A stretch of 64,000 nt of DNA from Candidatus Eremiobacteria bacterium (GCA_963758295.1 CAVWUU010000002.1:32001-96000), one strand, 5' to 3'; shown: positions 4,092 through 31,321, numbered from the stretch's first letter. Numbers and translations are program-made. The notes: generated from the sequence alone by a model not told the origin.

Positions 4092-5105
4092 ATGCGCATC
4101 GGTATCAACGGCTTTGGCCGCATTGGTAGAAATTTTGCCAAGGCGCTAATGGAGCGCCATCCCGACATTGAAATCGTCGCGGTGAACGATCTCACGAGCG
4201 CCGCGGAATGCGCGCATCTCTTCAAGTACGATAGCAACTACGGTCCCTACGACGGCGACGTCTCGGTTGAAGGCGACACGATCGCGATCGGCAAGCAGCG
4301 CATCAAAGTGCTCGCCGAACGCGACCCGGCGAAGCTTCCGTGGAAAGACCTCGGCGTGGACGTCGTCATCGAGTCGACCGGGCTCTTCACGGACGCCGCG
4401 AAGGCCCGCGCCCATATCGACGGCGGCGGTGCCAAGAAAGTCATCATCTCGGCGCCCGCCAAGGGTGAGGACGTGACGCTGGTTCTCGGCGTTAACGAAA
4501 GCGACTACGACGCCGAAAAGCACAACGTCATCTCGAACGCTTCGTGCACCACGAACTGCCTCGCAACGGCCGTGAAGCCGCTCGTCGACCATCTCGGGTG
4601 GGTCAAGGGCTTCATGACGACGATCCACTCGTACACGAACGATCAGAACATTCTCGATGCGCCGCATAAAGATATCCGCCGTGCCCGTAACGCCGCAACG
4701 AACATCGTTCCCACGAGTTCGGGGGCAGCGAAGGCACTCTACCTGACGATTCCGGAAGTCAAAGGCACGTTCGACGGCTTCGCACTGCGGGTGCCGACGC
4801 CGACCGTTTCGATGGTGTATCTCGTCGCTCAGGTCAAGAAAGAGACGACCAGGGACGAAGTCAACCAAATCCTGCGCAACGAGGCGCAGGGCGCGCTCAA
4901 AGACTACGTGCAGTTCACGGACGAAGAACTGGTTTCCAGCGACTTCAAAGGCTCACCGTACAGCTCGATCATCGATTCAAAGCTCACCCAAGTCAACGGC
5001 GACCTCGTGCAAATCTGCGCGTGGTACGACAACGAATGGGGCTATTCGTGCCGTCTCGGCGATCTCACGGCGATGATTCTGGAAAAGATTCCCGCTACGG
5101 CTTGA
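4092..5105 (+). CDS. gap: Type I glyceraldehyde-3-phosphate dehydrogenase
   Basis: GINGFGRIGR, ASCTTNCL, WYDNEWGYS. Confidence 0.99.
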   Translation: MRIGINGFGRIGRNFAKALMERHPDIEIVAVNDLTSAAECAHLFKYDSNYGPYDGDVSVEGDTIAIGKQRIKVLAERDPAKLPWKDLGVDVVIESTGLFTDAAKARAHIDGGGAKKVIISAPAKGEDVTLVLGVNESDYDAEKHNVISNASCTTNCLATAVKPLVDHLGWVKGFMTTIHSYTNDQNILDAPHKDIRRARNAATNIVPTSSGAAKALYLTIPEVKGTFDGFALRVPTPTVSMVYLVAQVKKETTRDEVNQILRNEAQGALKDYVQFTDEELVSSDFKGSPYSSIIDSKLTQVNGDLVQICAWYDNEWGYSCRLGDLTAMILEKIPATA

Positions 5106-16756: not shown

Positions 16757-17062
16757 TCATTCGCATCGGTAACTTCCGCTTGGATCGATCGAAAGACGCG
16801 TACCCGACACGACGATCGAGCGAATACGGTGATCCCAAAACGATAAGATCTTCACGGCAACGCGCGGAAGCCCGGCAATGATTTCACGCGCCCGGCGCGA
16901 TAGCGTCAAAGTGTCTTTGACCCACGGCGGATGATCGTGCGGCAGAAACGGTGTTTCAAGATCCGGCTCGCCGACAGCCGAAACAATCGGCTCGCTATGC
17001 GCGGTTTCGAGCGAAGCCGCAAGCGACGCAGCGCGATGTTCGCTTTCAATGCGACGAAGCAC
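16757..17062 (-). CDS. Hypothetical protein coupled to the sigma factor (may extend to 16582 via a frameshift near 16777)
   Basis: Overlaps the sigma stop; another frame continues EVTDANELIVEVYDVAMF. Confidence 0.45.
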   Translation of the reverse strand: MLRRIESEHRAASLAASLETAHSEPIVSAVGEPDLETPFLPHDHPPWVKDTLTLSRRAREIIAGLPRVAVKILSFWDHRIRSIVVSGTRLSIDPSGSYRCE

Positions 17063-17723
17063 GCAAGGCCTTTCTCATACGGCTAACAGCCGCGAGATGC
17101 AATTGCGACGCGCGCTGCGGCGAGATCTGCATCGACTTCCCGATCTCGCGCAGAGAGCGATCGAAAAAATAGTGAGCGCGTACGAGCTTTTGCTGGCGCT
17201 CCGGCAGTTGCTCGATCGCTTTGTGCACCGCGGATCGTTCGAGGTTTTCGATGAACTCGCACGCCGGGTCGTTGCGCCGGTCGCGTGCGAGCGATTCGCC
17301 ATCCGGAAGCGGAGCGTCTAACGAAAGCGGTTGGGTACGATGCGCAACAAGCGTTGCCCGCGCAAATCCTGGACAAATGGCGTCCACTTCTTTCACCGAG
17401 GGCACCTCGCCGCGCTCGACCGCGATTCGATAGCGTTCAGCTTCGCCCTCACGGACGGTGCGGCGGGCGCGCTCCGAGACGGGATCCATACGTCGAATCC
17501 CGTTGAGCATGGCGCCGGCTATAACACCGCTTGCATATTGCTCGAGCGTCGGCCCGCGCGTGGGATCGAAATTGTCGACGGCCCGAATGAGGCCGATACT
17601 GCCGTCGCCCACAAGGTCGTCGACATCGACGCCGGCAACCAGCCGGCGTATGCGACGCGCAATTCGCCTTACAAGAGGAAATAGCTCGCGGATCCGGCGC
17701 TCGCGGACCGTTTCAGCGGACAC
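17046..17723 (-). CDS. fliA: FliA/WhiG (sigma-28) family RNA polymerase sigma factor
   Basis: PLVRRIARRI, DDLVGDGSIGLIRAVDNFDP, LSLDAP, LPERQQ..SLREIG..ISPQRASQLH; flagellar neighbours. Confidence 0.78.
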   Translation of the reverse strand: MSAETVRERRIRELFPLVRRIARRIRRLVAGVDVDDLVGDGSIGLIRAVDNFDPTRGPTLEQYASGVIAGAMLNGIRRMDPVSERARRTVREGEAERYRIAVERGEVPSVKEVDAICPGFARATLVAHRTQPLSLDAPLPDGESLARDRRNDPACEFIENLERSAVHKAIEQLPERQQKLVRAHYFFDRSLREIGKSMQISPQRASQLHLAAVSRMRKALRASSH

Positions 17724-17910
17724 GATCGCCCAGCTGCGCCGCAAGTGCGGCGCCAAACCCCGCTTTATCTTGCTCTGCTATCGACTGCGCCAGCGACGTG
17801 ATCCCGAACGAGGCAACGGGGTCGCCATCCTTCGCCAAGGGCGCCAGGCACTGTTCGAGTAACATCGATTCGAGCGCGGCGCCCAGGCGGTTAACTCCTA
17901 CCGTATCCAT
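17713..17910 (-). CDS. Minimal FlgJ-like rod-binding domain protein
   Basis: AALESMLLEQCL...LAQSIAEQ..GFGAALAAQL resembles the FlgJ N-terminal rod-binding pattern; overlaps the sigma start. Confidence 0.55.
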   Translation of the reverse strand: MDTVGVNRLGAALESMLLEQCLAPLAKDGDPVASFGITSLAQSIAEQDKAGFGAALAAQLGDRVR

Positions 17911-17982
17911 GCGTCGACGCTATCAGCCGGCTGTTGCCAAATCGCTATGGACGCGTTACATATTCTCTAACGAGGTGTTGTT

Positions 17983-18417
17983 ATGGCAAGCGCAATCAAT
18001 GCTGAGCTCCAGGCTCCGCTTAATGGATTAGAGCAGGCGTGGAAACATGGCGACGGCGCAGCCTTCGCCGAACAGTGCACCGAGGACGTCGATTTCATCA
18101 ACATCCTCGGCATGCACGTTCAAGGGCGGCCGGCTGTCGCGGAGCTTCACAACAAGATCTTCAACGGTCCGTATAGGGGCAGCACCGTTACGTTCACCAT
18201 TGAAAGTGCTCGCGCAATCGGTTCCGATGCCGTGCTTGCCATCGTGCCAGGTCATCTCGAAATTCCGGAGGGTCCGGTAAAAGGCGCCGTCTTAACGGTT
18301 GCGAGCGTTTTGCTCCTCCGCGACGGCAGCGAATGGAAGATCGCCAACTTCCACAACACCCGGCGCGATTCCACACAACCGAGTCACCTCTCCGTAATGC
18401 GCGACGCAGTTAAATAA
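17983..18417 (+). CDS. SnoaL/NTF2-like (SgcJ/EcaC family) protein
   Basis: AWKHGDGAAFAE..TEDVDF..G..GR..H, WKIANFHNT; GAGGTG RBS. Confidence 0.85.
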   Translation: MASAINAELQAPLNGLEQAWKHGDGAAFAEQCTEDVDFINILGMHVQGRPAVAELHNKIFNGPYRGSTVTFTIESARAIGSDAVLAIVPGHLEIPEGPVKGAVLTVASVLLLRDGSEWKIANFHNTRRDSTQPSHLSVMRDAVK

Positions 18418-18757
18418 TATCCGCGATTGGCGCATCTCCCCTACCCGCACGACGGCAACGATCGTCTATTCGCTGAGGCCGTCATCAACAAATGGGTGCA
18501 GGTACCGTTTCCTATCATCAGCCGCCGTGCGGTCCTCATCAAGAGACACCGCATTCCATCTATCATCGTGTCCCACGTGATCAAACCCCTCGATAGGAAA
18601 TACAGAAACACGAAAGCACAATCGCGGACGCAATTGCCAAGGGCGGCCTAATGCTGGAAACTTTGCCTTCTCGACGGAACGCGAGTTAAGCGCTTTCAAA
18701 ACGCCAACGAAGCGGCCGCGAAAGCGCTGAAACGGATTTAAAACGCGAGAGCTAGTT

Positions 18758-19193
18758 ATGCCGCACATAGAGATTGACGCTAAATCATGGGGCGGGGTTT
18801 TTATTTACCCCCTTACATCCGCCATAGAAATTGAAGCCGACCCGTTGGCCGCGACATTCGCCGTTGGCTTTGTTTTTCGGCAATTGCCGGACTTGCGGTG
18901 GCTCAAAGAATCGGTCCATTTCCTCATTGAAAAAGGCGCGAGCTTTTGGCTTATTCGGGCCTGAGGCAAGTAAGGCGCATGCCGTGGTAGATGAGATCGT
19001 CGTCCGATTGAGTCTTGAAGAGACCATACTAAGCATGGACTTTGAGGACGAGCTACATAATGTCGTTCTGTCGTTCTTTGGTATTGCTCAAGGAAGCACC
19101 CAGTCGGGTGTCGACAGGTTTGCCTTTTTCGTGCCCATTTCTATGATGAGCGAGGTCGATGAATCGATAATGCAGGGACTCAATTTACGCTGA
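18758..19193 (+). CDS. Hypothetical cargo protein, apparently frameshifted at the T-run near 18945
   Basis: ORF 18758-18964 joins 18831-19193 (...EKGASF/GLFGPEASKAHAVVDE...) if one T is removed; lower GC. Confidence 0.5.
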
Positions 19194-19201
19194 ACGTTAG
19201 A

Positions 19202-19251
19202 CTAGCCGCTCTCTAGATTATTAGCAACGTCTCCTCTGCGCGCGCGGTGAT
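19202..19251 (-). pseudogene. Decayed displaced copy C of the flgG 3' end
   Basis: Minus strand ATCACCGCG...GCAGAGGAG..GTT GCT AAT AAT CTA GAG AGC GGC TAG = VANNLESG* versus IANNLQRG*. Confidence 0.6.
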
Positions 19252-19436
19252 CGCAACAAATCAACGCCACCGTTAGTCCGGCAGATTAACGCAACCTGCG
19301 AACCAGAGATCCATTGCTCGACATGGTAAATGGAGTCTATGCGTGTCGAGTCGCTCACACGACCGCGTTCGCTTCGCCTAAGCGTAACAGCTGCCGCTTC
19401 GTCGTGGCCGCGGTTTCATCTGCACGTTGGGCCTAC

Positions 19437-19506
19437 CTAGCCACGCTGAAGATTGTCGGCAATACGCAGCATTTGATCCTCTGCCTCGACGCCTTTAGCG
19501 GTGCAT
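19437..19506 (-). pseudogene. Displaced copy A of the flgG 3' end
   Basis: 19499-19437 encodes AKGVEAEDQMLRIADNLQRG*, 16/20 aa identical to the FlgG terminus; preceded by ATGCACC. Confidence 0.9.
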
Positions 19507-19591
19507 GCGAAATGCGGAGCGGAGCTCCTTCATCTTGAGATTTTCCGCTGGCGCAAAGCGCGCAAGGCTGCCGCGTCGAACACGTCATACG

Positions 19592-19906
19592 GTGAGAGAA
19601 CGCACTAGTACGAACGGGAAGGCTGCGGTGTCCTTATTCTGCGCACTGGTCTTGCTGATGATACCAGTGGTCGCGATGATAGCGCACTGGGGATTTTCGT
19701 ACGTGACCTACGGCTTGACAAATCTGCCGCTGGCGTCAGCTTCTGTCGCTGCTTCTCTTAGCATATTGGCTGCCGCACTGCTTCGTAACAGTCTCCGTAA
19801 AAGCGAACTGCGGATAATGACGATCTGCCTCATTTGGCTTATCGCTATAGTTGTTGGAGGTCTCGGCGAGACATATCTCTACCTCACCTTGGCTGGATGT
19901 TGCTAG
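19592..19906 (+). CDS. Small ~3-TM membrane protein (cargo)
   Basis: Three hydrophobic segments, AT-richer codons; start uncertain. Confidence 0.6.
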   Translation: MRERTSTNGKAAVSLFCALVLLMIPVVAMIAHWGFSYVTYGLTNLPLASASVAASLSILAAALLRNSLRKSELRIMTICLIWLIAIVVGGLGETYLYLTLAGCC

Positions 19907-20032
19907 CGCCCCGGCAGCTGGGCGTATCTTTCCGGATCGATTTCCTCGGTGGGCCATAGCAGGCCCACAATCGTTTTTCGAGCGTTCGCTATCGGATGAC
20001 GACTGGCGGCTGTTGATAGCCGCGATGCGCAT

Positions 20033-20102
20033 CTATCCTCGCTGCAGGTTATTCGCAATACGAAGCATCTCATCCGCGGCCTGTACGCCTTTAGCGGTGC
20101 AT
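20033..20102 (-). pseudogene. Displaced copy B of the flgG 3' end
   Basis: 20095-20033 encodes AKGVQAADEMLRIANNLQRG*, identical in aa to 22138-22076; preceded by ATGCACC. Confidence 0.95.
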
Positions 20103-20213
20103 ACAAGATGCAGATGCACGAAGAAACGTTAGCAAGCGGTTATCGCCGGCGAACGACGCGAGATTACATATGTCGGGTGCGGCAGAGGCCGCAAGATACG
20201 CGAGCCGGAACGT

Positions 20214-22074
20214 ATGATGTGCCGGGCTCTAGTAGAGGTGCCCATCTTGAGTGATCGAGCGCGCGCTCTTTGGCGAATCTGGCTACTGACGTTCTGCGCA
20301 TTGACCGCGCTGCTATCGATCGCGGAACTGCTTGATGTAACAGGCGCTATCGGTAAGGCCCCTTGGTATGGGTTATGGGGAGCCACTATGGGCGTCGCGG
20401 CGTCACAACCCTATATGGCCGAGGTAATGAGCATCGATCCGGGAAGAGCTTCGGATCGCGGCGGCCTTCGCCGAGGGCGACCTGCTTGACGTGCGCGCAA
20501 ACAACCTCGTCGATCGCTTCGCGATTCTAACGAATTCGGCGCAACCTCTGGCCGGGAAGACGATACTCGTCTCGGTAACGCGCGGCACCCGCCATATGCC
20601 CCTTCGCGTCGTGCCGCTCCCTGTAAACGTCATGCGGCGCTTGGATCAAATCATCGCGCCGATTGCCGTTCTCTGGCTCACGCTTTTTGCATCAGTCGTC
20701 GCGTGGCGGCGTGGGTACGTTCCCGGAAATCTTCTTCTATCGTCGGTGCTGCTTCTCACGGCGATTGTAAGCGGTGCGCCGAGCCACGGTTTTGCCGCGC
20801 CCTGGGCTTGGGCATATGTCGTCCTCGCGATCTGTGTATTTGCAGCGCCTTTAGGTGTGGCAATGTGGGCGACGTACGCAAGCGGCTTCGCGCATCCTCT
20901 TTCCCGGACACGCCGCGTCGCGCTATGGACATGCTATGTGTTCGTTGCATCTGCGGTTGTAATCGGCTGCGCCGAACTTCTAGGAACCATCACACTCTGG
21001 TTCGATCCGGTCGGCTTGTCGTTTCGGCCAATTTTGGCCCTACCAATGTTTGCAGCGATTCTGGCTGCATTGGCCTGTAGTTTACTGGCAATAGCCGAAT
21101 GCCGCGGAATCGATCGTCAGCGCGCGGCTTGGTCGCTCATTCCGTTGCCGATTGTCTATTTATCTTTGCAGGCGTTCGCCTTTATAAACTTTACATCATC
21201 ATCTTACGCCGCATACATTGGCTTTGCGTATCTCTATAGCACGCTTACGTTTATCGCGCCGCTCGCGCTTACGTACGCTGCCGTGAACCGCAGACTCATA
21301 GATCTCGGTTTTGTGTTAAACCGAACGCTGGTCTTCGCCATTGTGTCGGCGATCGTGATTGGTGCCTTTGTTGTCGCAGAGTGGGCGGCAAGCGAATGGT
21401 TCGTGAGCGCGAGTCATACGAGCAGCGTCGTCGTCGGCATGGTAGTAGCGCTGGCGCTTGGCGTGTCGATGCGCTACATTCACAGGTCTGTGGATAGCTT
21501 CGTCGATCGGGTTTTCTTTCGGAAGCGACATGAGGATGAAGCGGCGCTACGCAATTTTGCGCATGAGTCGTCATACATTACGGATCGATCGGTGTTATTG
21601 GAGCGATGCGCTCAGATCGTCCGGCAGCACACGGATACAGATGAGGTGGCGATCCTCATGCGTGGCGGATCCGGTTCATATTTGCAATATTCTAACGGGC
21701 GATCCGCCACCTCAGAGAACGACTCCGGAATCATTGCCCTGCGTGCTTGGGGCAAGCCCCTAGATTTACACGATGCAACGAATTCCGAATTGCAGGGATC
21801 TGTCGCGTTTCCGATGATGGCACGCGGTGTGCTGGTCGGGGCACTCGTCTGCGGGTCAAAAAAAGGCGGTGAGTCGTTTGCGCCTGATGAGATCGAAGCG
21901 CTCATGGCGCTTGCGCATGGCGTGGGCGTTGCGCTCGACTCTTTGAATCGCGAATCCGGCGACTCAATCGCATCGCTGCACGAAGCCGTGATCGGATTAC
22001 AAGCCAGCGTCGACACGATGCAAGAGAGTATCGCCGCTGAGTTTCGTGGATTCAGAAACCTGCTTCGACCATAA
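20214..22074 (+). CDS. Membrane sensor-like protein: TM + PDZ-like + multi-TM + GAF-like domain (frameshift near 20471)
   Basis: IDPGRASDRGGLR/EGDLLDV PDZ-like motif spans the shift; ~9 TM; C-terminal AFPMMARGVLVGALVCG..FAPDEIEALMALA. Confidence 0.7.
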
Positions 22075-22075
22075 G

Positions 22076-22804
22076 CTATCCGCGCTGCAAATTGTTCGCG
22101 ATCCGCAACATCTCGTCAGCTGCCTGAACCCCCTTGGCATTTGCTTCATAGGCGCGCTGCGCGCTGAGGATTTCCATCATGGATTCGATGATGGAAACGT
22201 TGGATTGTTCGAGCATGCCGAAGCGAATTTTCGGACCGTTGTCAGTGCCGGCATTGACGTAATGCGGAGCGCCGGAATGGGGGGTGGCATAGAACAACGT
22301 TCCGCCGATGGCACGCAAGTGTTCGGGTGATGGGAACTCGGCCACGCGGATATGCGCGATGCGCTGGGTGCCTTTAGGCGTATTCACCGTAAGCATCCCG
22401 TCTTCGGCGACCGTCGCGGAAAGCGCGTCGGCGGGTATGCGAAACCCATCGAGGCGCCAACCATCGCCGTTGCGCAATGCGCCATCGGAACCGCGTGAGA
22501 ATTCACCGCCGCGGGAGTAAGCCCGATGACCGGCCGAATCGACAACGGCGAAAAATCCGGGTCCGTCTATAGCAAGATCGAAGGAGCCGCCACTCTTCTC
22601 GAGTTTGCCTTGTTTGAAGAAGACTTGTTCGCCGGTCGCGATTGTTCCGAGCCCGTTCTCGCCCGGAGCAGCGAGCGCGGCAAAGCTTTCCGACGAACCT
22701 TTGAAACCGTTCACCTCCGAGTTGGCGAGATTGTTGGCGATTACGTCGAGGTTCTTTTGTTGCGCAGCCATGCCGGTCGCGGCGGCGAAAAGCGCGCGAT
22801 CCAC
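22076..22804 (-). CDS. flgG: Flagellar basal-body rod protein FlgG-like
   Basis: ATGMAAQQKNLDVIANNLAN..GFK, DLAIDGPGFF, LEQSNV..M.EI..AQRAYE; GTG overlaps the flgF stop (TAGTG). Confidence 0.88.
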   Translation of the reverse strand: MDRALFAAATGMAAQQKNLDVIANNLANSEVNGFKGSSESFAALAAPGENGLGTIATGEQVFFKQGKLEKSGGSFDLAIDGPGFFAVVDSAGHRAYSRGGEFSRGSDGALRNGDGWRLDGFRIPADALSATVAEDGMLTVNTPKGTQRIAHIRVAEFPSPEHLRAIGGTLFYATPHSGAPHYVNAGTDNGPKIRFGMLEQSNVSIIESMMEILSAQRAYEANAKGVQAADEMLRIANNLQRG

Positions 22805-24113: not shown

Positions 24114-24986
24114 CTAACGCATGCGCCGGAAAATCGGCTGCTCTGCGACGACGTGACGGAACGCTCGCTCGTGCACGGTGTTTGCAAGCGATTCATGCTG
24201 CCCGAGCCCAAGAAACCCAAGATGCATCAGGCTGTCGAAATACAGGCGGTGCATGCGGTACTGAATCGCGCCGTTGTACAAGGGCAGAATTCCTCGGGCC
24301 ACGATGGCGTGGAATTCGTTGATCGAACCGTCTTCCACCGGATTGTGCCGCGCAAACATTACATTCTGGCGAAGACGCTGGCCCGCGACCGCAAAGCGGT
24401 CCTGAATGTCGAAATGCTGCGATAGCGGTGAAACGAGTCCCGCTTGGCGGCCAAGGGCAATTAAGTCGTTCTCCGTGCGGTGCTCGAAGACGCCTGCCTT
24501 CGCGATTGCCGCCGCAACGTCGGTAATGCACGTGGCGTAGATAATTGTCTTCTCCAGCATGCCCGCTTCATCGAGCAAAGCGGCAAGGGAGTAGGCGTCG
24601 CCGCCGGTCCCGCCTCCCGGGATCCAAATGCGCACGAACGAGTACGTCTGCAACAACGGTACGACGTGCGAAATGAAGGCCTTGAAAAAGAGCGGATCGT
24701 GGAAGAGTTCGGCGCTGCCGCCGCTCATTGACACGATGAACGACACAAGCGCGCGCTCGTCGTGCAACAGCCGGTCCTGCAGCCCCGAGATGGTGTCTAT
24801 GCCTTCTGCACGCATCGAATCGGCGATGCGCCGGCGGAGCACCGATTGGTTGAAGTTTCGGAAGTCGTAGCCGCCGTAACGCATGAGGGCGTCAAGGAAG
24901 AGCTGGAGCTCGATGTCCGCCAGTTCGTCCCTGCGGAGGTTCAACGCCGTCAATCCGGCGTCTACGCCCCCTACTTGTTCAACCAT
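24114..24986 (-). CDS. CheR-like SAM-dependent methyltransferase fold protein with degenerate motifs
   Basis: [41 protein letters not shown]; overlaps the kinase stop. Confidence 0.85.
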
Positions 24987-27900
24987 ATCTTCAACAACGA
25001 CGTGAGCTGGTCGATGTCGACCGGCTTACTTACGTATTCGGAGGCGCCTGCCGCGATGCACGCGTCACGATCGCCCTTCATCGCTTTAGCAGTAAGCGCG
25101 ATGATCGGGATGTTGCTGATACGTTCCTCCGCGCGAATTCGGCGGATCGTCTCGAAGCCGTCCATTTCCGGCATCATGATGTCCATCAAAACCACGTCGA
25201 TGTCGCCGCGGGTTCGCAGCGTCGTAATGCCCTGCAGACCCGATTCCGCGCTGACGACGTCCATGCCGTAGGAACGCAATGCCGCTTCGAGGGCGAAGAT
25301 GTTGCGCGAGTCGTCGTCGACGATGAGTACGCGCTTGCTGTGCAACGACACCAGGGACGGATCGCCGCCCGACGGCGCCTTCTTCGCGCTTCCGAGATCG
25401 GCTTCGACGCGATGCAAGAAGAAGTTCAGTTCGTCGAGCAACCGCTCCGGCGCGTGTCCGTCTTTGACGATAATCGTCGATGAGAGGCGCCGCAAACGTG
25501 CTTCTTCGTCACGAGTCAGATCGCGGCCGGTATACACGATGACCGGAACGTTGCTCGAGCCCGGACGCGAGCGCATTTCTTCGATGAACGAATCGCCGGC
25601 CATATCGGGCAAGCCGAGGTCGACGACGACGCAGTCGAACGTCTGCGCCGCGAGCGCTGAAAGCGCCGCTTCGGCGGAACCGACGGCTTTGACGCTCATT
25701 TCGCCCGTTCCGATAAGATTGACCATCGCATTGAGCTGCGTCAGGTCATCTTCGACGACGAGCACGTTCTTGCCGCGATTTTCCGCAAACCCGAGCAGCC
25801 GGTCGAAGGTGTCCATCAACGCTTCTTCCGACACCGGCTTCTGCAAGTGCGCCACCGCGCCCGCTGCAATGGCGCGCTGCTGATGCTCGTCTCCGGAGAT
25901 GACGTGCACCGGAATGTGCGACGTTGCGCTCGTGCGCTTCAGACTGTCAAGTAACTGCCACCCGTCCATGTCGGGCAAGCCAACGTCGAGCGTGATGGCA
26001 TCAGGCACGTAACGGTTCGCCAGCTCGAGCGCTTCGCGCCCGTTATGCGCGACGATGCCTTTGAAGCCGCGCTCGCGTGCAAACGTGAGCAACAGTTTCG
26101 CGAACGTCGGATCGTCCTCCACGACGAGCAACGTCCGTTGATCCGGCGTGATCGTTTCGCGATCGTCCGCTTCGGTAACGGCTCGTGTAACGCGATGTTC
26201 CAGACGTTCGACCACTTCGTGCACGTGCGCGCCCGTTTGGGGACGAGCCTCGTGAACCACCGTGACCTCCGCGCGTTGCGCGGTCGCGGCGCGTTGCGCC
26301 GGGTGGAAGAGCGTGAACGTGCTGCCAACGCCGACGGCGCTTTCGACCCCGATTTCGCCGCCCAGCAAACCGGCGATTTCGCGGCTGATCGCGAGACCGA
26401 GACCGGTACCGCCGAACTTGCGCGACGTTCCCATGTCCGCTTGTTGGAACGCTTCGAAGATGACGTTGAACTTATCGCTCGGGATGCCGATGCCGGTATC
26501 CGTTACCGCGAAGGACACTGCCGGTCCGGGAACCGGCAACGTGCGGTCGTTCGTCATGCTGATGTGCAGCGTGATCGCGCCTTCGGTGGTGAACTTGAAC
26601 GCGTTGGAGAGCAGGTTCTTCAGAACTTGCTGCAAGCGCGTCGGATCTGTCACGATCGAGTTCGGCACGTCGCCGTCTCGGGCAACGACGAACTTGAGGT
26701 TCTTGTCCGCGGCGATTTGGCTGAACGTACGCTTGACTTCACGCTCGATCGAATCGATCGAAACATCCAGCAAGTCGATTGCCGTCGTTCCCGATTCGAT
26801 CTTCGAAAGGTCGAGAATGTCGTTGATAAGCGTGAGCAAATCCGTACCGGCCGAGCGAATCGTTTGCGCGAATTCGATCTGTTTGCCCGTCATGTTGCCT
26901 TCCTGGTTCTCTGCAAGCTGCTTGGAGAGAATGAGGAGCGAGTTGAGCGGCGTGCGCAACTCGTGCGACATGTTCGCGAGGAACTGCGACTTGTATTTCG
27001 ACGTAAGGGAAAGCTGCTCGGCCTTCTTTTCGAGTTCCGTTCGCGCTTCTTCGATTTCGCGCGTCCGGCGTTCGACTTCGGCGTTGCGTTCCTGAAGGAG
27101 ACGCGCCTTTTCTTCGAGCTCGTCGTTCGTCTGTTTGAGCTCGAGCTGCTGGCTTTGCAGTTCGGTCGTGAGCGACTGCGACTGCTTGAGAAGCTCCTCC
27201 GTACGCATCGACGCCGAAATCGTGTTCAGCATGACGCCGATCGACTGCATGAGTTGATCGAGGAACAGCAAGTGAATTTCGCTGAAGCGTTCGAGCGATG
27301 CGAGCTCGATGACGGCCTTGATTTCGCCTTCGAACAGCACCGGCAGTACGACCACGGACACCGCGTTCATGGAGCCGAGCCCCGAACCGATCTTGAGGTA
27401 ATCGCTCGGGACTTCCGTGAGCGCTATGCGCGCCTTCTCAACGGCACATTGCCCCACGAGGCCTTCGCCGAACGGCACGGCGCGGTTCAGGCGGCGATGA
27501 CGCGGCAACGCGTAACTTGCGATGAGTCGCAGGCTCGCCTCGCCGTCGGTCACGTCGGTCATGTAGAATCCGCCGGCCTGCGCGTTGACCAGCGGAACGA
27601 GTTCCGACATGATGAGCTGCGTGACGGCCGTAATGTCGCGCTGGCCCTGGAGCATGGAGGTAAAGCGCGCGAGGTTCGACTTGAACCAGTCTTGCTCGGT
27701 GTTCTTTCGCGTCGTGTCGCGAAGGTTCTGAATCATTTCGTTAACGTTGCGCGTCAACTCGCCGACTTCGCCGCGGGCTTCGATGTCGATCGTTCGCGAA
27801 AGGTCGCCCTTCGTAACGGCCGTCGAAACCTCGGAGATGGCGCGAATCTGGTTCGTGAGCTGCGCGGCAAGCTGGTTGACGTTATCCGTCAAGTCACGCC

Positions 27901-30900
27901 ACAAGCCGGCCGCACCAGGCACAGCGGCCTGGCCGCCGAGTTTTCCTTCGAAACCGACTTCGCGCGCAACCGTCGTAACCTGATCGGCGAACGTTGCGAG
28001 CGTGTCGATCATCCCGTTGATCGTCTCGGCGAGCTGGGCGATTTCACCGCGCGCCTGCAGCGTGAGCTTACGCTTCAGGTCGCCGTTTGCCACGCCGGTA
28101 ACGACTTCAGCAATACCGCGGACTTGGTTCGTCAAGTTGGCGGCCATCGAGTTGACGTTATCCGTCAAATCTTTCCAAACGCCGCTGACGCCCTGCACGT
28201 GCGCTTGTCCACCGAGCACGCCTTCTGAACCGACTTCACGAGCGACGCGCGTCACTTCCGATGCGAAGGCGTTGAGCTGGTCGACCATGACGTTGATCGT
28301 GTCTTTCAGCTCGGCGATTTCACCGCGAACGTCGACGGTAATCTTCTTCGACAGGTCGCCGTTTGCGACGGCGGTCGTAACCTTCGCAATGTTACGAACT
28401 TGCGACGTAAGGTTCGACGCCATGAAGTTCACGGAGTCGGTCAAGTCTTTCCACGTACCGGAAACACCGCGAACCTGCGCCTGACCGCCCAGAATACCTT
28501 CGGAGCCGACTTCACGCGCGACGCGCGTAACTTCGGAGGCGAAGGCGTTCAGCTGATCGACCATCGTGTTGACGGTGTTCTTCAGCTCGGCGATTTCACC
28601 GCGAACGTCGACGGTGATCTTCTTCGACAAGTCGCCGTTTGCAACGGCGGTCGTGACCGAAGCAATGTTACGCACCTGAGACGTCAGGTTCGACGCCATG
28701 AAGTTCACGGAGTCGGTCAAGTCTTTCCACGTACCGGAAACACCGCGGACCTCGGCCTGACCGCCGAGTTTGCCTTCGGAACCGACTTCACGGGCGACAC
28801 GCGTAACTTCTGAAGCGAACGCGTTGAGCTGGTCGACCATGACGTTGATGGTGTTCTTCAACTCGAGAATTTCGCCGCGAACGTCGACGGTGATCTTCTT
28901 CGACAAGTCGCCGTTTGCGACGGCCGTCGTGACCGACGCGATGTTACGAACTTGCGACGTCAGGTTCGACGCCATGAAGTTCACGGAGTCGGTCAAGTCT
29001 TTCCACGTGCCGCTCACGCCTTTGACGTCGGCCTGGCCGCCGAGTTTGCCTTCGGAACCGACTTCACGAGCGACGCGCGTGACTTCGGATGCGAACGCGT
29101 TCAACTGGTCGACCATGACGTTGATCGTGTTCTTGAGTTCGAGGATTTCGCCGCGAACCGGAACGGTAATCTTCTTCGACAAGTCGCCGTTGGCAACCGC
29201 AGTCGTCACTTCGGCGATGTTACGAACCTGCGACGTGAGGTTCGACGCCATGAAGTTCACGGAGTCCGTCAAGTCTTTCCACGTACCGCTGACGCCGGCA
29301 ACCTGCGCCTGGCCGCCGAGGATCCCTTCGGAACCGACTTCACGGGCGACGCGCGTGACTTCCGAAGCGAAGCCGTTGAGCTGATCGACCATGACGTTGA
29401 TCGTGTCTTTCAGCTCGGCGATTTCGCCGCGAACGTCGACGGTAATCTTCTTCGACAAGTCGCCGTTGGCAACGGCAGTCGTCACTTCGGCGATGTTACG
29501 AACCTGCGACGTGAGGTTCGACGCCATGATGTTGACCGAGTCCGTGAGATCTTTCCACGTCCCCGATACACCGCGAACGTCGGCCTGGCCGCCGAGCATG
29601 CCTTCCGATCCGACTTCGCGAGCGACGCGCGTGACTTCGGATGCGAAGGCGTTCAGCTGGTCGACCATCGTGTTGATCGTGCGTTTGAGGTCGAGAATTT
29701 CGCCTTTAACGTCGACCGTGATCTTCTTCGACAAGTCGCCGTTCGCAACGGCCGTCGTAACGTCGGCGATGTTACGAACCTGCGCGGTGAGGTTCGAAGC
29801 CATCGTGTTGACGGAGTCCGTCAAATCTTTCCACGTACCGGCGACACCTTGCACCTCGGCTTGTCCGCCGAGCTTGCCTTCCGAGCCCACTTCGCGAGCG
29901 ACGCGCGTGACTTCCGACGCGAAGCCGTTCAACTGGTCGACCATCGTGTTGACGGTGTTTTTCAGTTCGAGAATTTCGCCCTTAACGTCGACCGTGATCT
30001 TCTTCGACAAGTCGCCGCGAGCAACGGCCGTCGTGACTTCGGCGATGTTACGAACCTGCGACGTCAGGTTACCGGCCATGGTGTTCACCGAGTCGGTGAG
30101 ATCTTTCCACGTACCGGCGACGCCTTCGACGGCCGCCTGACCGCCGAGTTTTCCTTCGGAGCCGACTTCGCGAGCGACGCGCGTAACTTCCGACGCGAAC
30201 GCGTTCAGCTGGTCGACCATGACGTTGATGGTGTCTTTGAGCTCGGCGATTTCGCCGCGAACGTCGACGGTGATCTTCTTCGACAAGTCGCCGCGAGCAA
30301 CGGCCGTAGTAACGTCGGCGATGTTACGAACCTGCGCCGTAAGGTTACCGGCCATCGTGTTCACCGAGTCGGTGAGATCTTTCCACGTTCCGGCGACGCC
30401 CGTGACCTGCGCCTGGCCGCCGAGGATACCTTCGGAACCCACTTCGCGAGCAACGCGCGTAACTTCGGATGCGAAGGCGTTTAGCTGGTCGACCATCGTG
30501 TTGATGGTGCCTTTGAGCTGGCGAATTTCGCCGCGCGCTTCGACCGTAATTTTCTTTGAAAGATCGCCGTTGGCGACGGCGGTCGTCACTTCAGCGATGT
30601 TACGAACCTGCGCCGTCAGGTTACCGGCCATCGTGTTCACCGAGTCGGTGAGGTCTTTCCACGTACCGGCCACGCCCTTCACGAGCGCCTGTCCGCCGAG
30701 CTTTCCTTCGGAACCGACTTCGCGCGCGACGCGCGTCACTTCGGACGCGAAGCCGTTCAACCGATCGACCATTGTGTTGATCGTGCGGCTCGACTTTAAA
30801 AACTCGCCTTTGAGCGGATGATTCTCGGTCTCCAGCGGCATTCGTTGACTCAAGTCACCATTGGCGACCGCGCCGAGCACACGGCCAGCTTCCGACATCG

Positions 30901-31234
30901 GGAAAACGAGATCGTCGACCAGTTGGTTGACCGACTCGATGCAACCGCGCCACGCACCCTTCGCGCCTTCCGAACCCGCGCGCTTGCCGATTTGGCCTTC
31001 GCGCCCAACCACCTCACTGATACGTCCGAGCTCTTGATGCAGTTCTTGACCGTGTCCGATACAATCGTTGAATGCCTGTGCGATCTCACCGTCGATTCCG
31101 GTGAGATTTCCGGGCAAGCGCACGCTAAAATCACCGTCGCGCGCGGCTCGCAAAGCAGCAAGCAGAGCCGTCATTCTAAGACGGCCCGGCTCCGAATCGT
31201 GCGGTTCGGTGGGCTCAATAGTGACTGTCGACAT
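24971..31234 (-). CDS. Poly-HAMP GAF hybrid histidine kinase with three receiver domains (OsaA/group III HK-like)
   Basis: About 11-12 92-aa HAMP units, [37 protein letters not shown], three REC domains. Confidence 0.96.
27800..31050 (-). repeat. Intragenic 276-bp tandem repeats encoding the HAMP array
   Basis: [10 protein letters not shown] x10 plus one [10 protein letters not shown] and a degenerate N-terminal unit; boundaries approximate. Confidence 0.9.
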
Positions 31235-31321
31235 CCTGCGCAGGTGCCTCCAACGATTCAATTAGACGGACAAAGCCGAGGCTGTGGTCAGAAGACTCAC
31301 CCTCGGTCAGCATGCACGGTT

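Follow-up and report, generated by a model that had tools for sequence, protein, structure and literature searches.

The region between 17.9 and 22.1 kb of the 64-kb window (the whole stretch of 64,000 nucleotides that was analysed) is best read as a tandem series of recombinase-less cassettes that accreted at the attB of a large serine recombinase (LSR) specific for flgG, and we put the probability of this reading at roughly 0.6. The last 20 codons of flgG are the recombination target, with the attB positioned at the start of these codons. Each recognisable cassette is made up of a flgG-proximal tail, a conserved arm of 24 nt and, between them, a cargo gene that in most cases runs antisense. 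The tail completes flgG when the cassette stands first in line, and beyond the arm comes the tail which that cassette displaced. The array is a fresh example of the known piling-up of mobile DNA at one site.

The window belongs to genome G000, an assembly of six contigs that is 82% complete, and its features are collected in Table 1. The flgG gene was read from a GTG start at 22804 and its product ends in AKGVQAADEMLRIANNLQRG, followed by the stop; orthologs in relatives are 53–85% identical. In relatives with an empty site the flgJ-like ORF and fliA lie directly after flgG (synteny in 20 relatives). As a Pfam search with this 65-aa ORF returned no match, flgJ-like is a provisional name. The ORF layout shows that the block separates flgF and flgG from these two genes, as a preliminary description of the sequence had proposed. 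The same description placed the cassette ORFs on the strand opposite to flgG and considered the block to be AT-richer than its flanks. Both points hold, the second modestly: all four accepted candidate genes in the block are on the plus strand, antisense to flgG, and the GC content is 0.50–0.58 over 18350–20300 and 0.51–0.56 over 20900–21800, compared to 0.60–0.65 in the flagellar and fliA flanks.

Table 1. Features of the flgG array and its surroundings, in window coordinates.
Position	Strand	Feature	Support or remark
22076–22804	-	flgG, distal rod protein, 242 aa	Pfam Flg_bb_rod, LlgE_F_G_D1, Flg_bbr_C
22076–22142	-	Live flgG tail, attB-like (gene-side arm and tail), without element arm	att profile and alignment
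20491–22074	+	Cassette A cargo: 527-aa membrane protein with C-terminal GAF domain	GAF E 4.2e-9
20033–20119	-	att site 2, attR-type: 24-nt element arm (20096–20119), then displaced tail (20033–20095)	Tail 20/20 aa; arm-only profile E 1.5e-7
19505–19906	+	Cassette B cargo: orf133, predicted membrane ORF	
19437–19523	-	att site 3: element arm, then displaced tail (19437–19499), attR-type	Tail 16/20 aa; arm-only profile E 1.1e-7
17911–19436		Older array part, without recognisable att sites	att profile: no match
19202–19239	-	Possible decayed tail fragment VANNLESG and stop, without statistical support	Score 30, profile E 1.5
18831–19193	+	orf120	Older array part
17983–18417	+	DUF4440/SnoaL gene	DUF4440 E 4.2e-9
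17713–17910	-	65-aa ORF called flgJ-like	Native gene downstream of flgG
17046–17756	-	fliA	Sigma70_r2/r4

The last 20 residues of FlgG and the stop are repeated on the same strand at att sites 2 and 3, with start-to-start distances between the tail copies of 2043 and 596 nt. In a scoring scan these displaced copies reached 97 and 83, compared to a maximum of 36 over 105 shuffled loci, and the recurrence of the flgG terminus that was originally claimed stands for these two. The fragment VANNLESG and its stop (19202–19228), originally counted as a fourth tail copy, is not supported, as its score of 30 falls within the shuffle range and its profile E value is at the level of noise matches elsewhere in the window. 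An att DNA profile built solely from 36 sites of other genomes was run over the whole window and matched at just three places, 20033–20118 (E 2.4e-24), 19437–19518 (E 7.6e-19) and the live end at 22077–22142 (E 5.3e-18), where the match begins only at profile position 23. Both displaced copies have in common approximately 24 extra bases upstream of AKGV, reading ..CT before AKGV, which are absent from live flgG. This conserved 24-nt arm before the displaced copies was missing from the preliminary description.

The GAF protein gene of cassette A runs towards flgG, and a single base parts their stop codons; its homologs in G003 (76% identical) and G214 (73%) also lie directly after flgG. The orf133 of cassette B gave no Pfam match and no tblastn match among the 40 loci compared; its listed start overlaps att site 3 and the real start may therefore be further in, while a terminator-like hairpin (19949–19968) follows its stop. 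The distal part of the array has already decayed. Homologs of its SnoaL gene (52–64% identity) are cassette cargo in eight other genomes, and in all nine of its occurrences the SnoaL cassette takes the most distal position. A search for recombinases in the four window cassette ORFs and in 57 array ORFs of other genomes found none, which agrees with the earlier view of the cassettes as integrase-less.

The array architecture was read in 23 other species, with one to five cassettes and varying cargo. Among 21 loci, namely that of the window and those of the 20 closest relatives in which a flgG locus is present, five have extra tails (scores 79–99 compared to the shuffle maximum of 36), 13 have an empty site with a flgG-to-fliA gap of 110–313 nt, including G005 from the same genus, and the remaining three hold other content between flgG and fliA. 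Every one of 20 further chosen loci has one to five displaced tails. By hand count, displaced tails are found in at least 39 of the 353 genomes of the order, spread over 11 genera, and the array of G212 has up to five of them, hence at least four cassettes. Comparison of the flgG–flgJ intervals, as originally envisaged, thus revealed relatives with empty sites and with variable cassette content. The flank DNA of G095 and G110 is 89–92% identical, yet they carry different cassettes at the site, while G000 and G003 have the first and last cassette in common and differ in the second. Between G000 and G214 the identity is 73% for the GAF protein, 65% for FlgG, 57% for FliA and 45% for FlgF. Insertions that have no tail are also seen in the same gap: G022 has a Uma2 gene there, and G019 has genes for Uma2, DUF411 and TnpB.

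The arm consensus of 40 displaced sites is cCgTCgGCTTTTtGTATGCACtcCTAAAGG, and none of the 24 live sites has this arm. The junction falls at one and the same codon in 38 of the 40 displaced sites; the other two (the fourth of G212 and the second of G064) have a hybrid arm, in which the outer part is from the element and the inner part from the gene. Over 41 loci (528 kb) the arm matched 40 times in the flgG sense and never inverted, and the arrays therefore consist only of attR-type sites and the attB-like live site. For the window cassettes the right site is attR-type and the left site is either attB-like or another attR-type site. In four arrays the tail furthest from flgG overlaps the start of the flgJ-like ORF, as the flgG end does at empty sites. 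The fixed point in the flgG end across many species, together with the conserved arm beside every displaced tail, supports site-specific insertion and is in keeping with the single site first proposed. It had also been suggested that each incoming unit carries a replacement flgG tail, and indeed the stop codon and the bases beyond it travel with the cargo that follows them; the tail preceding the SnoaL cassette ends in GGATGA in four of five cases, while most other tails end in TAG or TAA. Comparing displaced and live tails of the same genome (34 comparisons) gave a pS of 0.69 and a pN of 0.054, a ratio of 0.078, and the displaced tails are former coding ends that stem from other lineages.

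A recombinase had been expected to co-occur with such arrays and to serve them in trans. An LSR does occur at the same site in four related genomes (G149, G115, G079 and G103), but it is absent from G000. In G149 there is a 13.2-kb insertion in flgG, the only one of the four LSR elements to be assembled whole. It codes for a protein of 620 aa in which Resolvase, Recombinase and Zn-ribbon domains are recognised (the zinc ribbon at 24.4 bits, slightly below the 25.3 cut-off), and the start of this gene abuts the arm. Orthologs (61–65% identity) were found in only three other genomes of the 353, and all four genes are at most a few tens of bases away from a flgG att site. The protein matches solved LSRs weakly, namely the TP901-1 integrase (E 5e-13) and also SPbeta YokA and TnpX. 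The G149 element is flanked by attL and attR, as are those of G115 and G079 across contigs. The attP rebuilt for these three elements from attR-left and attL-right has 18, 19 and 19 dyad matches of 25, compared to a maximum of 17 in 20,000 random 58-mers, with its centre within CCTA/AAGG. An arm profile made from the 36 mini-cassette sites matches the three LSR attR sites (E 1.7e-8 to 9.7e-7) and, at two attL sites, falls exactly on the partner arm in inverted orientation (E 0.29 and 0.38). The arm beside the displaced tails makes up half of the palindromic attP of the LSR elements.

The tails of the LSR elements are poor flgG copies (for example AKGVHTKMQRSFWP and stop), whereas those of the mini-cassettes are near-perfect; past the arm, the G149 element tail is still flgG-like (..M.LR..LQR..). 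A composite in which an LSR element adjoins mini-cassettes was sought and none was found, each of the four LSR genomes having a single displaced tail. In the 82% complete G000 there is no PF07508 or PF00239 match, no LSR and no resolvase-family gene, and service in trans is not borne out in a genome without any serine recombinase. A Recombinase-domain gene is also absent from G003, G214 and G014, the latter two being single contigs that are 94–95% complete. The Phage_integrase matches of G000 lie on other contigs; one is an intact Xer-like gene and the other a broken gene.

If the arrays accreted at an LSR attB, LSR elements would integrate into the live attB, and their excision via a more distant attR would pick up cassettes, while excision via a nearer attR would leave behind cassettes that each have a functional flgG tail. 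The cassettes would then move by cis-mobilisation, as described for CIMEs. From such a cycle it would follow that the array grows at its flgG-proximal end, with the oldest cassette beside the flgJ-like ORF. Some cassettes are probably also lost or swapped by homologous recombination, for which the tails offer 63 nt. This route of mobility is inferred. As G000 has no serine recombinase, its own array is currently non-autonomous and probably static.

Several observations count against accretion at an LSR attB. The LSR is present in 4 of 353 genomes, compared to at least 35 that hold arrays but no LSR. Neither a gene with a Recombinase domain in G000, G003, G214 and G014 nor a composite of LSR element and mini-cassettes was found. 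The mini-cassette tails are better flgG copies than the LSR tails, and the origin of the first mini-unit is not explained. Under the usual rules for serine integrases, attR-type and attB-like sites do not recombine with each other, and arrays of attR-type sites alone beside an attB-like live site do not fit this pairing. Hybrid arms in 2 of 40 sites are not predicted by a simple crossover at one dinucleotide, and strictly proximal, chronological growth alone does not explain the middle-cassette difference between G000 and G003.

A doubtful alternative, which spells out the original proposal, is an integron-like platform. Each cassette would be a separate circle with one site, formed by the arm and the flgG tail of that cassette, and an LSR acting in trans would recombine this site with the live attB in a direct reaction. 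As a flgG tail is what enters as the right half, an attB-like site and an arm-plus-tail site would again result, and the reaction would be reversible and repeatable. This agrees with array sites of one type and one orientation, a live site that always resembles an intact attB, single-gene-sized units and the long array of G212. The displaced tails also keep a three-base periodic, coding-type conservation, as expected if tails are live at times, and the flgG-like tail of G149 makes elements with a true tail as right arm plausible. However, in canonical serine integrases a site that is half attP and half attB counts as attR and does not react unless a directionality factor is present; the arm-plus-tail sites are attR by these rules, no circular form was encountered, and most array genomes have no LSR. 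A shade more doubtful is a full serine-recombinase counterpart of the integron, where single-gene circles of a half-attP and a working flgG end would enter and leave one by one, attB would be regenerated and spare tails would periodically be live. Spare tails that were at times the real FlgG end would explain the protein-level selection on displaced tails.

It is improbable that the arrays were built without this LSR, either by another recombinase or by homologous recombination between tails after DNA uptake, the LSR elements merely using the same conserved spot. The rarity of the LSR (4 of 353 genomes) and its restriction to one genus (g44), when arrays span 11 genera, would fit such an origin, as would the tail itself, which is 63 nt of portable homology, the differing middle cassettes of G000 and G003 and the tail-less insertions of G022 and G019. 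Against this, the arm by the displaced tails matches the LSR attP arm and has the palindromic partner that an LSR site should have, and a same-codon junction in 38 of 40 sites would not result from homologous recombination. Between tails of the same array, 69% of the synonymous sites differ, which makes them a poor RecA substrate, while the sole intact tyrosine recombinase of G000, the Xer-like gene, is also present in the empty-site genome G005. An assembly artefact, in which the repeated tails came from sequences wrongly joined or collapsed when the metagenome-assembled genome was built and which the preliminary description had named as fatal to its proposal, can be dismissed despite the incompleteness and six contigs of G000 and a 100-N gap exactly at the flgG tail start of G002 that shows the repeat to trouble assemblers, since the architecture recurs in independent assemblies of 23 other species, single-contig G014, G175 and G214 included, and the tail copies differ at many bases and so are not collapsed duplicates.

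Accretion at an LSR attB would provide a natural attB/attP pair for an LSR in a poorly studied, mostly uncultured lineage, for which the nearest Atlas clusters alone point to Vulcanimicrobiota. It would also mean that recombinase-less cassette accretion, known from SCC and streptococcal CIMEs, takes place at single-gene scale in a flagellar rod gene. Arrays of attR-type sites only, a regenerated attB at the live site and coding-type conservation of spare gene ends are unusual for serine integrases. Should the recombinase act directly on the array sites, they would form a reversible, repeatable docking system.

The array resembles an integron in that small, mostly single-gene cassettes of mixed function gather at one site, with new entries proximal. 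The integron-like character originally suggested does not amount to membership of the integrons. The ORFs that surround the array in the window include no intI and no other recombinase gene, and there is no attI and no common promoter. Folding of both sites on both strands as DNA gave no attC-type hairpin (z -0.62 to +0.22 compared to 200 shuffles), and the window att sites have no local inverted repeat. The cassette genes run antisense to flgG as anchor (4 of 4 ORFs, one with 370 nt of its own upstream DNA) rather than being co-oriented and promoterless, and the boundary repeat is a piece of a protein-coding gene. Likeness to phage and island LSRs (phiC31, TP901-1, SPbeta SprA) lies in the domain set, the attP dyad of approximately 50 bp around a non-palindromic central pair and the hybrid attL and attR that bound the 13-kb element. 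These gene-inserting integrases typically leave one element per site, unlike the flgG arrays with their many attR-type sites and regenerated attB.

In the classic CIME, ICESt1 and ICESt3 cases the recombinases are tyrosine recombinases and the targets are fda or tRNA gene ends. The window cassettes have no recombinase genes, and their right-hand site matches the LSR element attR, but their left site is attB-like, without the element arm expected of attL, and no autonomous element resides at the window array. No described system had been recognised as similar; judged from excerpts of the sources, CIMEs (PMC5704250) and SCC (PMC12648241) are comparable. The excerpted text on CIMEs describes decayed recombinase-less elements that accrete in tandem where the target gene has its 3' end, with composite excision and cis-mobilisation observed (PMC5704250). 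In the excerpt on SCC, the serine recombinases (Ccr) move cassettes bounded by direct repeats at an attB within the 3' end of rlmH/orfX, a strongly conserved gene (PMC12648241), and SCC islands, in a further excerpt, can hold several tandem elements, some without recombinase genes, such as psi-SCC (bioRxiv 10.1101/336396). The likeness to SCC is confined to the working principle. The target is flgG rather than rlmH, in a host of a different phylum, and the units are single genes of 0.6–2 kb rather than islands of many kilobases. Unlike in SCC, what is repeated in the flgG array is an entire gene end of 20 codons, on which coding constraint acts.

The end of flgG (the last 20 codons and the stop, here called the tail) recurs twice in the window on the same strand as the gene, at spacings of 2043 and 596 nt. 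In a position-scoring scan these displaced copies scored 97 and 83, against 36 for the best of 105 shuffled loci. A DNA profile for the att sites, made from 36 sites in other genomes and searched on the 64-kb window, found only three places: 20033-20118 (E = 2.4e-24), 19437-19518 (7.6e-19) and the live end at 22077-22142 (5.3e-18). The recurrence claimed in the preliminary description is thus upheld for three flgG ends, while the fourth that it listed, at 19202, is not above chance because its scan score was 30 and its profile E-value 1.5. Every base difference between the live tail and the nearer displaced copy is silent at the protein level, and about 24 extra bases directly upstream of AKGV are common to both displaced copies and absent in live flgG. 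No flgG tail was found in the rest of this genome (G000), and the profile found no decayed att sites in 17911-19436; the distal 1.5 kb of the array appears to have lost its att sites. As described previously, all four accepted ORFs of the block are opposite in strand to flgG and the block is richer in AT than its flanks, although the GC difference is modest. Past the block lie a 65-aa ORF without a Pfam hit and then fliA.

Features of the flgG block and its surroundings in the window
Feature	Position	Strand	Remarks
flgG	22076-22804	minus	GTG start read; Pfam rod domains; C-terminal end AKGVQAADEMLRIANNLQRG, then stop
GAF-domain membrane protein, 527 aa	20491-22074	plus	stop one base from flgG stop
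Displaced tail, copy 2	20033-20095	minus	20/20 residues of flgG end
orf133	19505-19906	plus	accepted ORF
Displaced tail, copy 3	19437-19499	minus	16/20 residues of flgG end
orf120	18831-19193	plus	accepted ORF
DUF4440/SnoaL protein	17983-18417	plus	accepted ORF
CheR gene	24114-24986		CheR Pfam hits; adjoins 2096-aa ORF
2096-aa ORF	24971-31261	minus	by eye, many near-identical repeats of ~92 residues, then GAF-like, histidine-kinase and several receiver-like parts

FlgG is present in 37 of the 41 genomes searched (G000 counted), and 20 loci from near relatives were compared with the window. Genes usually run flgF, flgG, the 65-aa ORF (if it can be recognised), fliA and a 101-aa ORF. The gap from flgG to fliA is 110-313 nt in 13 of these 21 loci, and as they include the same-genus genome G005 and both sister-family genomes the empty site is likely to be the ancestral state. 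Extra tails scoring 79-99 are found in five loci (G000, G003, G001, G012 and G014). The empty sites and varying cassette content anticipated for relatives do occur. The other three loci hold different content. In two (G019, L051; G022, L055) a Uma2-family putative endonuclease gene begins at the stop of flgG, and neither an extra tail nor an arm (the element-side stretch described below) is present; the 3.2-kb gap of G019 also carries genes for a DUF411 protein and a TnpB-type (OrfB_IS605) protein. In the third (G002, L041, contig C16, oriented ~2910) 100 N begin exactly past ...AQRAYEANAKG of flgG, which looks like an assembly break at a repeated tail. The flgG of G014 (L054, contig C1) matches in two pieces in different frames, residues 1-102 and 109-232, which may reflect a frameshift; this genome is a single contig and carries an array as well. 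At four loci (L188, L189 and L196 from G153, G099 and G084, and L046 from G008) the FlgF match to that of the window is limited to residues 1-66 and 159-200, and these genomes seem to encode a short FlgF without the middle domain. Elsewhere in G000 (contig C4, 9693-11077) lies another flgF-flgG pair with 35-39% identity to that of the window, and several relatives also have two sets.

A 25-residue query from copy 2 matched 324 of 353 genomes of the order, with many extra matches beginning at the two junction residues in open frames of less than 100 aa. Defining an array as two or more matches overcounts, as the second matches in G050 and G201 had E-values of 0.1-0.4 and lay elsewhere in the genome; we therefore used a conservative hand count, which gave clear displaced tails in at least 39 of the 353 genomes, from 11 genera. 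These tallies take in 10 unpublished genomes, none of which is the source of a described array. A further 20 loci, picked from this search for showing the feature, all have one to five displaced tails between flgG and fliA. An 18-nt degenerate motif of arm and tail start was too loose to serve as an array finder, giving at least 120 chance matches in unrelated taxa across the whole collection and a FlgG-type tail in none of 80 loci examined.

Every displaced tail is preceded by a conserved 24-nt stretch, the arm (consensus of 40 sites cCgTCgGCTTTTtGTATGCACtcCTAAAGG), which occurs in none of 24 live sites; across 41 loci (528 kb) all 40 hits are in the flgG sense and none is inverted. In four arrays the most distal tail and the start of the 65-aa ORF overlap, precisely the arrangement found at empty sites, and this tail is therefore the original flgG end of the host. 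The tail ends GGATGA and is followed by similar bases in four of five SnoaL cassettes: the tail preceding a cargo moves together with it. The arm region at the rear of a cargo runs on from the upstream DNA of that cargo. The cassette unit is thus tail, cargo and arm, in that order. This organisation supports the earlier proposal of site-specific insertion with a replacement flgG tail.

The cargo comprises glyoxalases, alpha/beta hydrolases, SnoaL/DUF4440 proteins, cupins, metallo-beta-lactamase-fold proteins, a GNAT, an NmrA-like protein, ArsR-type regulators, GAF membrane proteins, a TMEM175-type channel and a bactofilin; none of the 57 scanned array ORFs is a recombinase. Three comparisons point to turnover of cassettes. 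The SnoaL cassette is most distal in all nine of its occurrences. Between G000 and G214 the GAF cassette is 73% identical, compared with 65% for FlgG, 57% for FliA and 45% for FlgF, which points to horizontal movement of the cassette. G095 and G110 have flanks of 89-92% identical DNA and different cassettes. Crossover mapping from this closest pair was uninformative, as all tails are 84-89% alike and alignments pass through regardless of ancestry. The middle cassette is not the same in G000 and G003. Two of the 40 sites have a hybrid arm (L178 from G212, oriented 4139-4219; L179 from G064, oriented 4829-4909), reading RRLFIAN before AKGV, with element arm in its outer portion and gene-side sequence in its inner portion.

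When 34 displaced tails were each compared with the live tail in its own genome, the synonymous difference was 0.69 (near the 0.79 between live tails of different genomes) and the non-synonymous difference 0.054, a ratio of 0.078, and conservation in the displaced tails follows a three-base period. The displaced tails are therefore not recent duplicates of the resident tail, and each was for most of its past a working FlgG end, in another lineage or earlier in its own. Distal tails behind the apparently old SnoaL cassette are still well kept.

In four genomes of genus g44 (G149, G079, G115 and G103) the FlgG matches stop at residues 220-227 of 234. G149 (97% complete, 3 contigs) has 13.2 kb between flgG and an arm-bearing displaced tail that abuts the 65-aa ORF. 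This insertion encodes a 620-aa large serine recombinase (LSR; Resolvase E = 2e-20, Recombinase E = 3e-25, zinc ribbon slightly below cut-off), the gene start of which adjoins the arm, together with a second, smaller serine recombinase, a methylase-Mrr-type nuclease fusion and an ImmA/IrrE-HTH protein. Among solved proteins the 620-aa LSR comes closest to TP901-1 integrase, SPbeta YokA and TnpX, every match being weak. Orthologs with 61-65% identity occur in exactly three more genomes (G079, G115 and G103), and in all four the LSR lies beside a flgG att site; the G103 element (L202, contig C222, 6456-8958) is reversed relative to the others, its LSR gene following flgG on the same strand by attL. 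Six other genomes with matches at E = 1e-20 or better hold only distant relatives (identity at most 42%), which, where both genes could be placed (G121 left out), lie 87-97 kb away from flgG or on a different contig. One partial locus, truncated on its arm side, was the only further LSR candidate in metagenomes, and none was found in the viral collection. The LSR elements supply FlgG with poor substitute ends, such as AKGVHTKMQRSFWP followed by a stop.

For three elements attP was rebuilt from the left part of attR and the right part of attL. It forms an inverted repeat in which 18, 19 and 19 of 25 positions match, with its centre in CCTA/AAGG; the best of 20,000 random 58-mers reached 17. The arm profile from 36 mini-cassette sites found the three LSR attR sites (E = 1.7e-8 to 9.7e-7) and, at precisely the right place in two attL sites, the inverted partner arm (E = 0.29 and 0.38). 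The arm next to each displaced tail in the window is thus an attP arm of this LSR family. Sequence comparison shows a site-specific target at the K codon of AKGV, the same target as that of the LSR family, and arrays in which the live site is attB-like and every further site is of attR type. The site-specific, replacement-tail reading can now be tied to a recombinase family.

The most likely route is accretion driven by the LSR element, which would need canonical reactions only and would yield exactly the observed unit. The element would integrate at the live attB and, with a directionality factor, could excise via a farther attR, carrying off the intervening cassettes. In a new host it could then excise via the nearer, internal attR and leave a cassette in place, preceded by a good tail and followed by the old tail of the host. 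No resolvase-family gene was found in G000, and its array is therefore non-autonomous. A bolder reading, in which an arm-plus-tail site recombines directly with attB as in an integron, would fit the finding that all array sites are of one type and that coding constraint on the tails has persisted, but clashes with the usual rules of serine integrases. A tyrosine recombinase or Xer was rejected as the agent, as G000 has one intact Xer-like gene that is common to the empty-site genome G005 and one broken gene, with no link to the site.

At the abstract level, with subscription journals outside the coverage, literature on flgG as an integration site for an integrase gave only engineering work in E. 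coli; flgG was absent among the matches listed for 'serine recombinase' and attB, and none of the matches listed joined the phylum names to flgG, 'serine recombinase' or 'genomic island'. The preliminary description saw an integron-like array and recognised no such described system. The flgG array differs from an integron in having no intI, no attC hairpin and no common promoter, and its working principle is that of two known systems. CIMEs grow by tandem accretion, in which integration is followed by decay with the att sites kept and by new integration at the att site holding the gene end, and their composites undergo cis-mobilisation (PMC5704250). SCC elements use serine recombinases, insert at an attB in the 3' end of rlmH/orfX and are bounded by repeats (PMC12648241), and composite SCC islands include elements without a recombinase (bioRxiv 10.1101/336396). 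The system is not without precedent but a variant of the accretion at a gene end already known from CIMEs and SCC, whether as an ordinary accretion island or, less probably, as an integron analogue built on a serine recombinase.
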